Source: Escherichia phage ST2. Taken from it: a DNA stretch of 64,000 nucleotides. This document shows, piece after piece, positions 26,301 to 27,466 of this stretch; position 1 is the first letter of the stretch; every line of letters starts with the position of its first letter. The notes below the pieces were generated by a model, which worked only from the letters and a program-made list of their open reading frames with translations, had not been told where the DNA came from and did no database searches. The position numbers and the translations under genes are program-made. Location of the stretch: sequence record OM982647; one strand, given 5' to 3'.

Positions 26301-26656
26301 GTGATAACATTGATGTTAACGACGTTTATATTCGTTCTGATATTCGTTGTAAGTCGGAAATTAAGCTTATTAAGAACGCTCAAGAGAAATCTAAACTATT
26401 GGGCGGTTATACTTATCTGCTTAAAAACTCTGTTACAGACGAAGTTAAACCGTCCGCAGGTTTAATTGCTCAGGAAGTTCAAGAAGTATTACCTGAACTT
26501 GTTTCTGAAGATAAAGAGACCGGACTGCTTCGTTTGAACTATAACGGTATTATTGGTTTAAATACAGCTGCAATAAACGAGCATACAGATGAAATCAAGG
26601 AATTGAAATCTGAAATTACCGAATTGAAAGCATTAATTAAATCATTGATAAAATAA
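23393..26656 (+). CDS. 37: long tail fibre distal subunit gp37 with C-terminal intramolecular chaperone (S74-like) domain
   Basis: 1087 aa; N-terminal [35 protein letters not shown]...; last ~115 aa carry the autoproteolytic chaperone signature ([10 protein letters not shown] ... GGYTYLLK ... [15 protein letters not shown] ... [11 protein letters not shown]). Confidence 0.9.
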   Translation: [1087 protein letters not shown]

Positions 26657-26661
26657 TAAAA

Positions 26662-26675
26662 GGGCCTTCGGGCCC
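26662..26675 (+). other. GC hairpin GGGCCttcgGGCCC between genes 37 and 38 (no T-tract; overlaps gene 38 ribosome-binding site)
   Basis: perfect 5-bp stem with tetraloop immediately before TGGAGG ribosome-binding site. Confidence 0.4.
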
Positions 26676-26686
26676 TGGAGGTTTAT

Positions 26687-27466
26687 ATGGCAGTAGTAGG
26701 AATCCCTGGTTGGATTGGGACCTCAGCCGTTGCTGAAACGGGTCAAAGATGGATGACGGCTGCTTCAAGGGAACTTCGTTTAGGAAACCCTTCATGGATG
26801 TCCCAATTCGCGGGCCGTTCAAGAGAAATAATTCATACACTTGGTGCAGACCATAACTTTAACGGACAATGGTTCCGAGATAGATGTTTTGAGGCAGGTA
26901 GTACACCTATAGTGTTTAATATCACTGGAGATTTAGTATCATATTCTAAAGATGTTCCTTTATTCTTCATGTACGGAGATACACCGAATGAATATGTTCA
27001 GTTGAATATACACGGCGTAACGATGTATGGACGTGGGGGTAATGGCGGTAGCAATAGTCCTGGCTCAGCTGGAGGTCATTGTATTCAAAACGATATTGGT
27101 GGGAGACTAAGAATTAATAATGGTGGAGCTATTGCAGGCGGCGGTGGCGGCGGTGGCGGCGGTATATATGGCAGACTATCATTTGGTGGTGGCGGTGGTC
27201 GTCCATTTGGTGCTGGTGGGTCTTCCTCTCATATGGGTGCTGGTGCAACCGCTGGCACCATTTCCGCTCCGGGTGCAGGATCTGTCGGTGAGGGGTCTCT
27301 TTGGGTATATACAGGCGGGAATGGCGGCGAAGTTGGCTCTGCAGGAGGAAGATGTAATATTCATGGTAACGGCACAGAATATAACGGCGGCGGTGCTGGT
27401 TATGCTGTTATAGGGTCTGCTCCAACGTGGATAAATGTTGGAGCAATATATGGTCCAAGAGTATAA
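26687..27466 (+). CDS. 38: gp38 receptor-recognising adhesin (T2-type, glycine-rich motifs flanking variable segments)
   Basis: 259 aa; conserved N-terminal gp37-binding region then multiple Gly islands ([61 protein letters not shown]). Confidence 0.85.
27137..27163 (+). repeat. (GGC/GGT)9 simple codon repeat encoding poly-Gly in gene 38
   Basis: ggcggcggtggcggcggtggcggcggt seen directly. Confidence 0.8.

Follow-up and report, generated by a model that had tools for sequence, protein, structure and literature searches.

The predicted receptor-binding tip of the long tail fiber of Escherichia phage ST2 and the apparent mosaic origin of its Gp38 adhesin

What makes up the long-tail-fiber tip of Escherichia phage ST2, and which protein on the host surface does it recognize? 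This phage, an Egyptian isolate active on Shiga-toxigenic Escherichia coli (STEC) O157:H7 and on Shigella boydii (PMC9404725), is a Mosigvirus; the genome closest to it is that of the Mosigvirus PhAPEC2 (97.6% over the fiber block). The window analyzed here, a 64-kb stretch of the ST2 genome (OM982647), carries on its + strand the genes g37 (positions 23393-26656), coding for the 1,087-residue precursor of the distal subunit of the long tail fiber, and g38 (26687-27466, 259 codons and a stop). By exact-sequence match, their products are UUB18367.1 (gp37) and UUB18368.1 (gp38), both labeled "hypothetical protein" in GenBank. An initial annotation of the interval 26309-27466, which extends from residue I973 of gp37 to the stop codon of gp38, had described it as a T2-type receptor-binding tip, with a C-terminal intramolecular chaperone domain in gp37 and a glycine-rich adhesin in gp38.

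The results presented below make it very probable that this locus encodes the receptor-binding tip module of a long tail fiber of the T2/T6/S16 type, with an adhesin of the OmpA-binding type. This is a textbook module, already known from two solved structures of the family and from a near-identical binding region of a typed phage, and the case matters little beyond annotation. Still, names can be given to the two hypothetical proteins of ST2, gp37 with an S74 chaperone domain in one case and Gp38 adhesin in the other. Besides this annotation, the analysis adds a predicted cleavage site, the recombination junctions, and a predicted receptor; the recombinant adhesin, OmpA as the likely receptor, and the 106-residue fragment were all absent from the initial annotation.

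Gp38 as a predicted adhesin of the fiber tip

Judging by its sequence and predicted fold, gp38 is a full-length adhesin of the T2/T6/S16/PP01 type. Both parts of the Pfam adhesin pair (PF21721/PF05268) are recognized in it well above the cut-off of 25 bits, Gp38_N in residues 1-42 (E = 6e-21, 74.6 bits) and GP38 in residues 47-259 (E = 6e-68, 229.4 bits), and the match to PHROG 2056, "tail fiber protein; host specificity," spans positions 1-267 of the 267 in that family (E = 1.6e-106). In the PDB, the protein matches the receptor-binding domain of PP01 gp38 (9V85; E = 3e-77) and S16 gp38 (6F45_D; E = 1.3e-53). The fold, a beta-helix combined with a polyglycine-II sandwich, was predicted with AlphaFold2 from an alignment of 81 homologs (mean predicted local distance difference test [pLDDT] value of 88.3, predicted template modeling score of 0.80). 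When this model was compared to the PDB using Foldseek, with template modeling (TM) scores normalized to the target, the only significant matches were 9V85 (TM 0.88, root mean square deviation 2.1 Å) and 6F45_D (TM 0.79, probability 1.00), and no other fold scored below E = 1. The initial annotation had proposed an alignment of gp38 with related adhesins and a structure prediction as checks on its reading, and both turned out in its favor: the alignment delineates five hypervariable segments, and the model superposes on PP01 gp38. The latter is the best structural match to the ST2 protein, with 66% sequence identity and a near-identical beta-helix domain, although its loops A, B, and D differ from those of ST2 in length and sequence and its receptor is OmpC of O157, as opposed to the OmpA predicted here.

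These matches also bear on a quite different view of gp38, namely, that it is a T4-type assembly chaperone that acts on gp37 and stays outside the virion, leaving receptor binding to the gp37 C terminus. Several database records do label homologs of this protein "distal long tail fiber assembly catalyst," but these labels have been carried over from T4, where gp37 itself binds the receptor (PMC6851490). All that T4 gp38 shares with its ST2 namesake is the name and the place downstream of g37; its function is unrelated, as is its sequence to those of the adhesin family (PMC6851490). No chaperone family, including those of assembly chaperones, was matched by ST2 gp38 in Pfam at E <= 0.01, and all PHROG matches with a stated function are to adhesin or host-specificity families. 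In addition, ST2 gp37 ends in a self-cleaving chaperone domain and not in a receptor-binding tip of the T4 type. Given that gp38 matches adhesin families only, over its full length, and that its predicted fold is that of two adhesins crystallized from virion tips, the T4-type identity was rejected as extremely improbable. The initial annotation was thus right in assigning gp38 to the T2/T6 type.

This adhesin's N-terminal attachment domain (residues 1-45; 26687-26821), recognized by the Gp38_N match, is of the PhAPEC2 type, with 100% nucleotide identity to that phage. It contains three Trp residues, W9, W22, and W37, that are invariant across 10 reference adhesins, including the one from S16, in which the three Trp residues plug the adhesin into gp37 (PMC6851490). 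The rest of the protein is dominated by glycine, which accounts for 36% of residues 110-259 versus 10% of residues 1-109, and this richness explains the local rise of the G+C content to 0.50. In the glycine-rich, predicted polyglycine-II sandwich region (residues 115-238; 27029-27400), Gly motifs alternate with variable segments. The glycine clusters are at positions 115-121, 151-159, 167-171, 175-178, 210-214, and 234-238, in addition to the invariant GG pair at 129-130. In the 81 homologs, the invariant or near-invariant elements are GRGGNGG (115-121), GG (129-130), G151-158, GGGGGRPFG (167-175), GGxGG (210-214), and GG (234-235). Together with the Gp38_N match and the three Trp residues, these motifs bear out the conserved N-terminal region and the glycine islands of the initial annotation. 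Its count of five islands fits the classical description of T2/T6-type adhesins, in which 4 hypervariable segments go with 5 glycine-rich motifs (Trojet 2011; PMC3157838); the conservation profile obtained here shows five variable segments, and in the crystal structure of the S16 tip, 10 helices of the polyglycine-II type and 5 loops at the distal end are resolved (PMC6851490).

Sequence entropy among the homologs peaks in residues 122-128, 159-166, 176-188, 193-209, and 218-233, and these segments can be mapped onto the receptor loops A to E defined in the PP01 gp38 structure paper (PMC12892980). Segment 1 (27050-27070), with the sequence SNSPGSA, is the counterpart of loop A, and segment 2 (27161-27184), GIYGRLSF, is that of loop B, in a short form that does not have the YYSPF insertion of the Tsx-type adhesins. 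The equivalents of loops C, D, and E are contained, respectively, in segments 3 (27212-27250), 4 (27263-27313), and 5 (27338-27385). Segment 4 carries the 4-residue insertion EGSL that typifies the OmpA "type 2" group and, as in the IME340 subtype, a W206-V207 pair. The earlier suggestion that the variable segments between the glycine islands are the likely specificity loops agrees with both the entropy profile and the PP01 loop mapping.

Two open reading frames (ORFs) in other frames overlap the glycine-rich part of g38, one of 97 residues on the + strand (27120-27413) and one of 61 residues on the - strand (27179-27364). Most likely, these are by-products of the GGN-rich sequence and not genes.

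The gp37 chaperone domain and the proposed assembly of the tip

The last 106 residues of gp37, S982 to K1087 (26336-26653), represent an intramolecular chaperone domain of the Peptidase S74 family. The Pfam match covers residues 982-1037 and positions 1-57 of the 58 in the model (E = 8e-12; 45.7 bits, cut-off 22); since it includes position 1, the domain model begins exactly at S982. Over its last 165 residues, gp37 matches the S16 gp37 chain 6F45_A (E = 1.4e-28) and, weakly, the self-cleaving domain of human MYRF (E = 0.024), whose Lys residue, five positions after the Ser, aligns with K987. When eight T-even gp37 C termini (from S16, T2, T6, FL12, IME340, BF15, FL23, and ST2) are aligned, residues S982, D983, R985, and K987 and the downstream core G..AQ...LP..V are invariant, and S982 is aligned with the mapped cleavage serine of S16. 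All four motifs that the initial annotation quoted as a chaperone signature are found verbatim in this C terminus, GGYTYLLK at residues 1004-1011 (26402-26425) and the other three at residues 982-991 (26336-26365), 1023-1037 (26459-26503), and 1046-1056 (26528-26560). The domain ends in a heptad-like, coiled-coil tail. Within that tail, nine nucleotide differences from PhAPEC2 are clustered at 26554-26620, while the rest of gp37 is 100% identical; at these nine positions, BF15 also differs from ST2. The cluster may be a small patch of gene conversion.

In S16, cleavage of gp37 has been mapped to DLNVS^SDRRIKK, with the release of 113 residues, and in the fPS phages, the corresponding site follows the sequence DVYIR (PMC7917993). 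Aligned with S16, the scissile bond of ST2 gp37 should be R981|S982 (26335|26336), in the sequence context DVYIR981|S982DIRCK987. As this sequence matches the mapped S16/fPS site, the released fragment can be predicted to consist of the 106 residues from S982 to K1087. The initial annotation had a domain of roughly 115 residues, which agrees with the S74 match as to its nature but exceeds the predicted fragment in size, and its start of the interval at I973 (26309) lies nine residues upstream of the predicted cleavage site. It is established that, in T2 and T6, gp37 undergoes proteolytic processing before gp38 caps it (Drexler et al. 1986, cited in PMC3157838). These two phages (with FadL/OmpF and Tsx as the respective receptors) resemble ST2 in gene order, in the processed gp37, and in the 5 glycine motifs with 4 hypervariable segments, but their gp38 proteins are only 52% (T2) and 83% (T6) identical to that of ST2, and the hypervariable segments and receptors differ.

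Residues S982 and K987 probably constitute the catalytic dyad of this domain, a putative assignment by analogy. Peptidase S74 chaperone domains have a Ser-Lys dyad, as is reported to have been described by Schulz et al. 2010. In MYRF, the dyad is S587/K592; in endosialidase, it is Ser911/Lys916, for which a text search gave no usable support. Like ST2 gp37, the chaperone of the endosialidase of K1F and MYRF belong to the Peptidase S74 family, have the SDxxxK Ser-Lys motif at the start of the domain, and place this domain C-terminally to a trimeric beta-helical protein. They are, however, distant from ST2 gp37, in which a fiber takes the place of the tailspike enzyme or transcription factor as the passenger.

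Given that the Pfam match spans just the first 57 positions of the 106-residue tail, the S74 domain might be seen as a degenerate relic that stays attached to the fiber, with gp38 binding elsewhere or not at all. Such a scenario is very unlikely: the Ser, Asp, and Lys residues of the SDxRxK motif are invariant, the 106-residue tail can be aligned over its whole length with that of S16, whose release is known, and the domain is clearly conserved, with its DNA 100% identical to that of PhAPEC2 over most of the length and 89-98% identical to that of BF15. A functional, self-cleaving chaperone thus remains the preferred reading of the gp37 C terminus.

The region just upstream of the chaperone is homologous to the trimeric tip of S16 gp37, and its last part (26159-26335, ending in DVYIR981) can be predicted, from its similarity to 6F45_A, to form the distal tip of mature gp37 and the docking surface for the N-terminal domain of gp38. 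The domains, conserved residues, fold prediction, recombination junctions, and near-identity to an OmpA-typed adhesin were computed here; the steps by which the tip would be assembled and used are modeled on homologs. In this scheme, gp37 would be made as a 1,087-residue precursor, and its S74 chaperone (S982-K1087) would nucleate trimerization of the beta-helical fiber and then cleave itself off at R981|S982, probably through the S982/K987 dyad, laying bare the flat DVYIR tip of the trimer. A single gp38 monomer would dock on that tip by its N-terminal helical domain, with W9, W22, and W37 serving as prongs. The remainder of gp38 would form a small beta-helix that bears the polyglycine-II sandwich built by the conserved glycine motifs, and the five variable segments would be its distal loops, touching the receptor, i.e., the extracellular loops of OmpA. 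The gp37-gp38 tip of Salmonella phage S16 (PDB 6F45) has the same organization, including a trimeric gp37, a released C-terminal chaperone, and a monomeric gp38 with three Trp residues, a beta-helix, and a polyglycine-II sandwich. It differs from ST2 in gp38 sequence (about 45-52% identity) and loops, in the cleavage site (DLNVS^S versus DVYIR^S), and in the size of the released fragment (113 residues versus the predicted 106).

The predicted receptor

The closest relative of the ST2 receptor-binding region is found in the Tequatrovirus IME340 (Enterobacteria phage vB_EcoM_IME340). From residue 62 on, the two gp38 proteins differ at four positions (I160N, G236A, A245T, and I249Q, with the ST2 residue given first), of which only I160, in variable segment 2 (loop B), falls in a receptor loop. 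The two proteins have the same length (259 residues) and the same loop lengths and belong to the same 90% protein cluster. They are less similar in the attachment part (90.8% over residues 1-109), and the DNA for the gp37 tip and chaperone is only about 35-58% identical. The receptor of IME340 is OmpA, as demonstrated by spontaneous resistant mutants and by an ompA deletion that abolishes both infection and adsorption, with complementation restoring both (PMC6499177).

Over residues 110-259, ST2 gp38 is 97.3% identical to that of IME340, 91.3% to FL12, 90.7% to EV240, 87.3% to FL20, and 84.7% to FL18. Phages FL12, FL18, and FL20 are OmpA dependent and belong to the "type 2" group with narrower host ranges (Lutz et al. 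2025; PMC12032242). Phage EV240 uses OmpA/HepI, and its gp38, when placed in CM8, switches the latter phage from Tsx to OmpA (bioRxiv 10.64898/2026.04.02.716166). The binding region of ST2 groups with these typed OmpA "type 2" binders and has the same pattern of loop insertions and deletions; the OmpA "type 1" adhesins of FL08 and AV119 are only 52% identical to it. Because of the near-identity to the OmpA-typed IME340, the 85-91% identity to other typed relatives, and the lower identity and other loop lengths of the Tsx binders, E. coli OmpA is the best-supported prediction for the primary receptor of ST2, and quite likely the correct one. Tsx was considered as well, as the Tsx binders T6, FL23, and CM8 come next in similarity (78-81% over the same region), but was rejected as the best candidate: these adhesins have the YYSPF insertion in loop B and no EGSL insertion in loop D, and their identity of ∼80% compares to 85-97% for the OmpA binders.

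Several observations count against this interpretation, or at least against its details. Every experimentally typed OmpA adhesin has Asn in the position of I160, the sole loop residue in which ST2 departs from IME340, and in the Gp38 family, one substitution in a loop can be enough to change the porin recognized, as shown by the Q206L replacement in hypervariable segment 3 (HVS3) that switches RB51/RB68 from OmpF to OmpW (bioRxiv 10.64898/2026.04.02.716166). The isolation hosts are different, STEC O157:H7 for ST2 and BL21 for IME340, so the range of OmpA alleles may differ between the two phages. In the gp38 model, the N-terminal 45 residues have low confidence (pLDDT of 39-77), which is to be expected in the absence of gp37 but leaves the docking mode without independent support from the model. 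Cleavage of gp37, the presence of gp38 in the virion, and the receptor are all assigned to ST2 by analogy with its homologs, and the published description of this phage includes neither receptor nor fiber-tip analysis (PMC9404725).

Accepting the architecture as described, one could therefore argue that the receptor is not OmpA but Tsx, OmpF, OmpC, OmpW, FadL, or an O157-specific surface structure, with the adhesin having been re-targeted by a few substitutions relative to IME340 or by the different attachment domain. The I160 residue, the RB51/RB68 precedent, the proximity of the Tsx-binding adhesins, and the isolation of ST2 on O157:H7, along with its infection of S. boydii, would all be compatible with this view. 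However, just one of the four differences from IME340 is in a receptor loop, the loop lengths and diagnostic indels (loop B in its short form, EGSL inserted in loop D) are those of the OmpA group, unlike those of the Tsx group, and all five independently typed relatives with binding regions 85-97% identical to that of ST2 use OmpA. On balance, a receptor other than OmpA appears improbable. There is likewise only a slim chance that the Ile160 chimera recognizes other alleles of OmpA (e.g., those of O157:H7 or S. boydii) or another porin; if it does, ST2 would provide another natural case in which one substitution in a loop has re-targeted a Gp38 adhesin.

The prediction of OmpA as the ST2 receptor could be useful in food biocontrol of STEC O157:H7, for which this phage has been proposed. 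If it is correct, ompA mutations would be the obvious route to resistance, and pairing ST2 with OmpA-independent phages can be suggested.

Mosaic origin of the adhesin and its genomic setting

The relationships described above change along the locus, as revealed by sliding-window DNA identity over 25514-28156 and by a listing of the differing sites. ST2 is essentially identical to PhAPEC2 through gp37, including its tip and chaperone domain, and into gp38, up to position 26866, which is also the last site before the switch that separates ST2 from IME340. Differences from PhAPEC2 begin to cluster at 26878. The left junction is therefore located in a conserved stretch of gp38 codons 61-64 (26867-26877), with PhAPEC2-like sequence upstream and IME340-like sequence downstream. 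From 26878 to about 27360, ST2 is 90-100% identical to IME340, compared to 39-89% for PhAPEC2. The right recombination zone is at the end of g38 (27418-27472); from there on, ST2 is 98-99% identical to the JS09-like Mosigviruses, such as AV109, mar005P1, and JK36, which applies to the end of g38, the holin gene t, and asiA, compared to 72-86% for PhAPEC2. By its DNA sequence, the ST2 adhesin is a natural recombinant, being of the PhAPEC2 type in residues 1 to ∼60 and of the Tequatrovirus IME340 type from residue ∼64 to residues ∼225-245.

Because the JS09-like t holin and asiA (27472-28429 region) lie beyond g38, the mosaic extends past the adhesin, and ST2 is more than a PhAPEC2 in which gp38 has been replaced. 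The two phages are about 100% identical in gp34, gp35, gp36, gp37 (whose products fall into one 90% protein cluster), and the first ∼60 codons of gp38, but the DNA for the receptor-binding region of gp38 is only 39-67% identical, gp38 as a whole has only 71% protein identity, and the t holin 72-86%. Given the divergent receptor-binding region of gp38, ST2 and PhAPEC2 should differ in their primary receptors. The left junction falls just after the attachment domain, so that the gp37 tip has retained the N-terminal domain of gp38 that matches it.

The Tequatrovirus BF15 (MW822007) offers a related observation: in its positions 1-1350, compared to 26114-26860 of the window, it carries the same module of gp37 tip, chaperone, and gp38 N-terminal domain, with 87-98% nucleotide identity, whereas upstream of that module its gp37 is only 42-64% identical to ST2. 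This likeness suggests that the docking-interface module, too, moves between genera as one unit.

A crossover inside a glycine-rich motif, according to the model of Tetart 1998, is not what ST2 shows, as the left junction is upstream of the first glycine motif and the right one is at the g38/t boundary. The location of both junctions in conserved flanks agrees with the laboratory crosses of Trojet et al., in which crossovers occurred in such flanks and not within the glycine motifs (PMC3157838). The locus is a clear-cut natural instance of an adhesin exchanged between genera, with the crossovers in conserved flanks and the gp37-tip/gp38 interface intact. A fusion of another kind is seen in the 303-residue "tail fiber domain-containing protein [Escherichia coli]" of the NCBI database, in which gp38 residues 1 to ∼155 are fused, within the poly-glycine motif, to an IME340-type gp37 S74 domain. 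Either this sequence is an assembly artifact, or the G-rich repeat has been the site of a genuine rearrangement.

According to the ORF list, with gp36, gp37, gp38, and holin T confirmed by Pfam, the tail fiber block has the order g34-g35-g36-g37-g38-t on the + strand and is followed by asiA, with the proteins upstream of g37 being gp34 (17702-21535), the fiber hinge protein gp35 (21544-22668), and gp36 (22728-23384). The position of g38, directly 3' of g37 and 5' of the holin gene t (27497-28156), matches the gene order typical of Gp38 adhesins; asiA is downstream of t on the - strand. The T4-type late-promoter consensus TATAAATA is found on the + strand at 22694-22701, 27 nucleotides upstream of g36. 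It has five matches in the 64-kb window, two of which are just upstream of g34 (17660) and g36 (22694); this count is not enriched over shuffled sequences, so the argument is positional only. By that argument, the late transcript of g36-g37-g38 probably starts from the 22694 copy.

The g37-g38 intergenic spacer (26657-26686, + strand) contains a GGGCC-UUCG-GGCCC hairpin, followed by a GGAGG ribosome-binding site and the gp38 ATG. The hairpin (core at 26662-26675, about -12.3 kcal/mol) does not look like a terminator because no T-run follows it. A regulatory role of this UUCG hairpin was considered and dropped, since its stability is indistinguishable from that of shuffled sequences (z = -0.75).

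Two further domain matches were noticed in the fiber proteins. In gp35, residues 58-131 match the Pfam family ILEI ("Interleukin-like EMT inducer," PF15711) with a score that exceeds its gathering threshold (30.2 bits, cut-off 27, E = 6.4e-7). Residues 453-550 of gp37 match the C-terminal trimerization domain of gp34 (PF21446; 29.4 bits, cut-off 27), and the proximal and distal half-fibers therefore have one domain in common.

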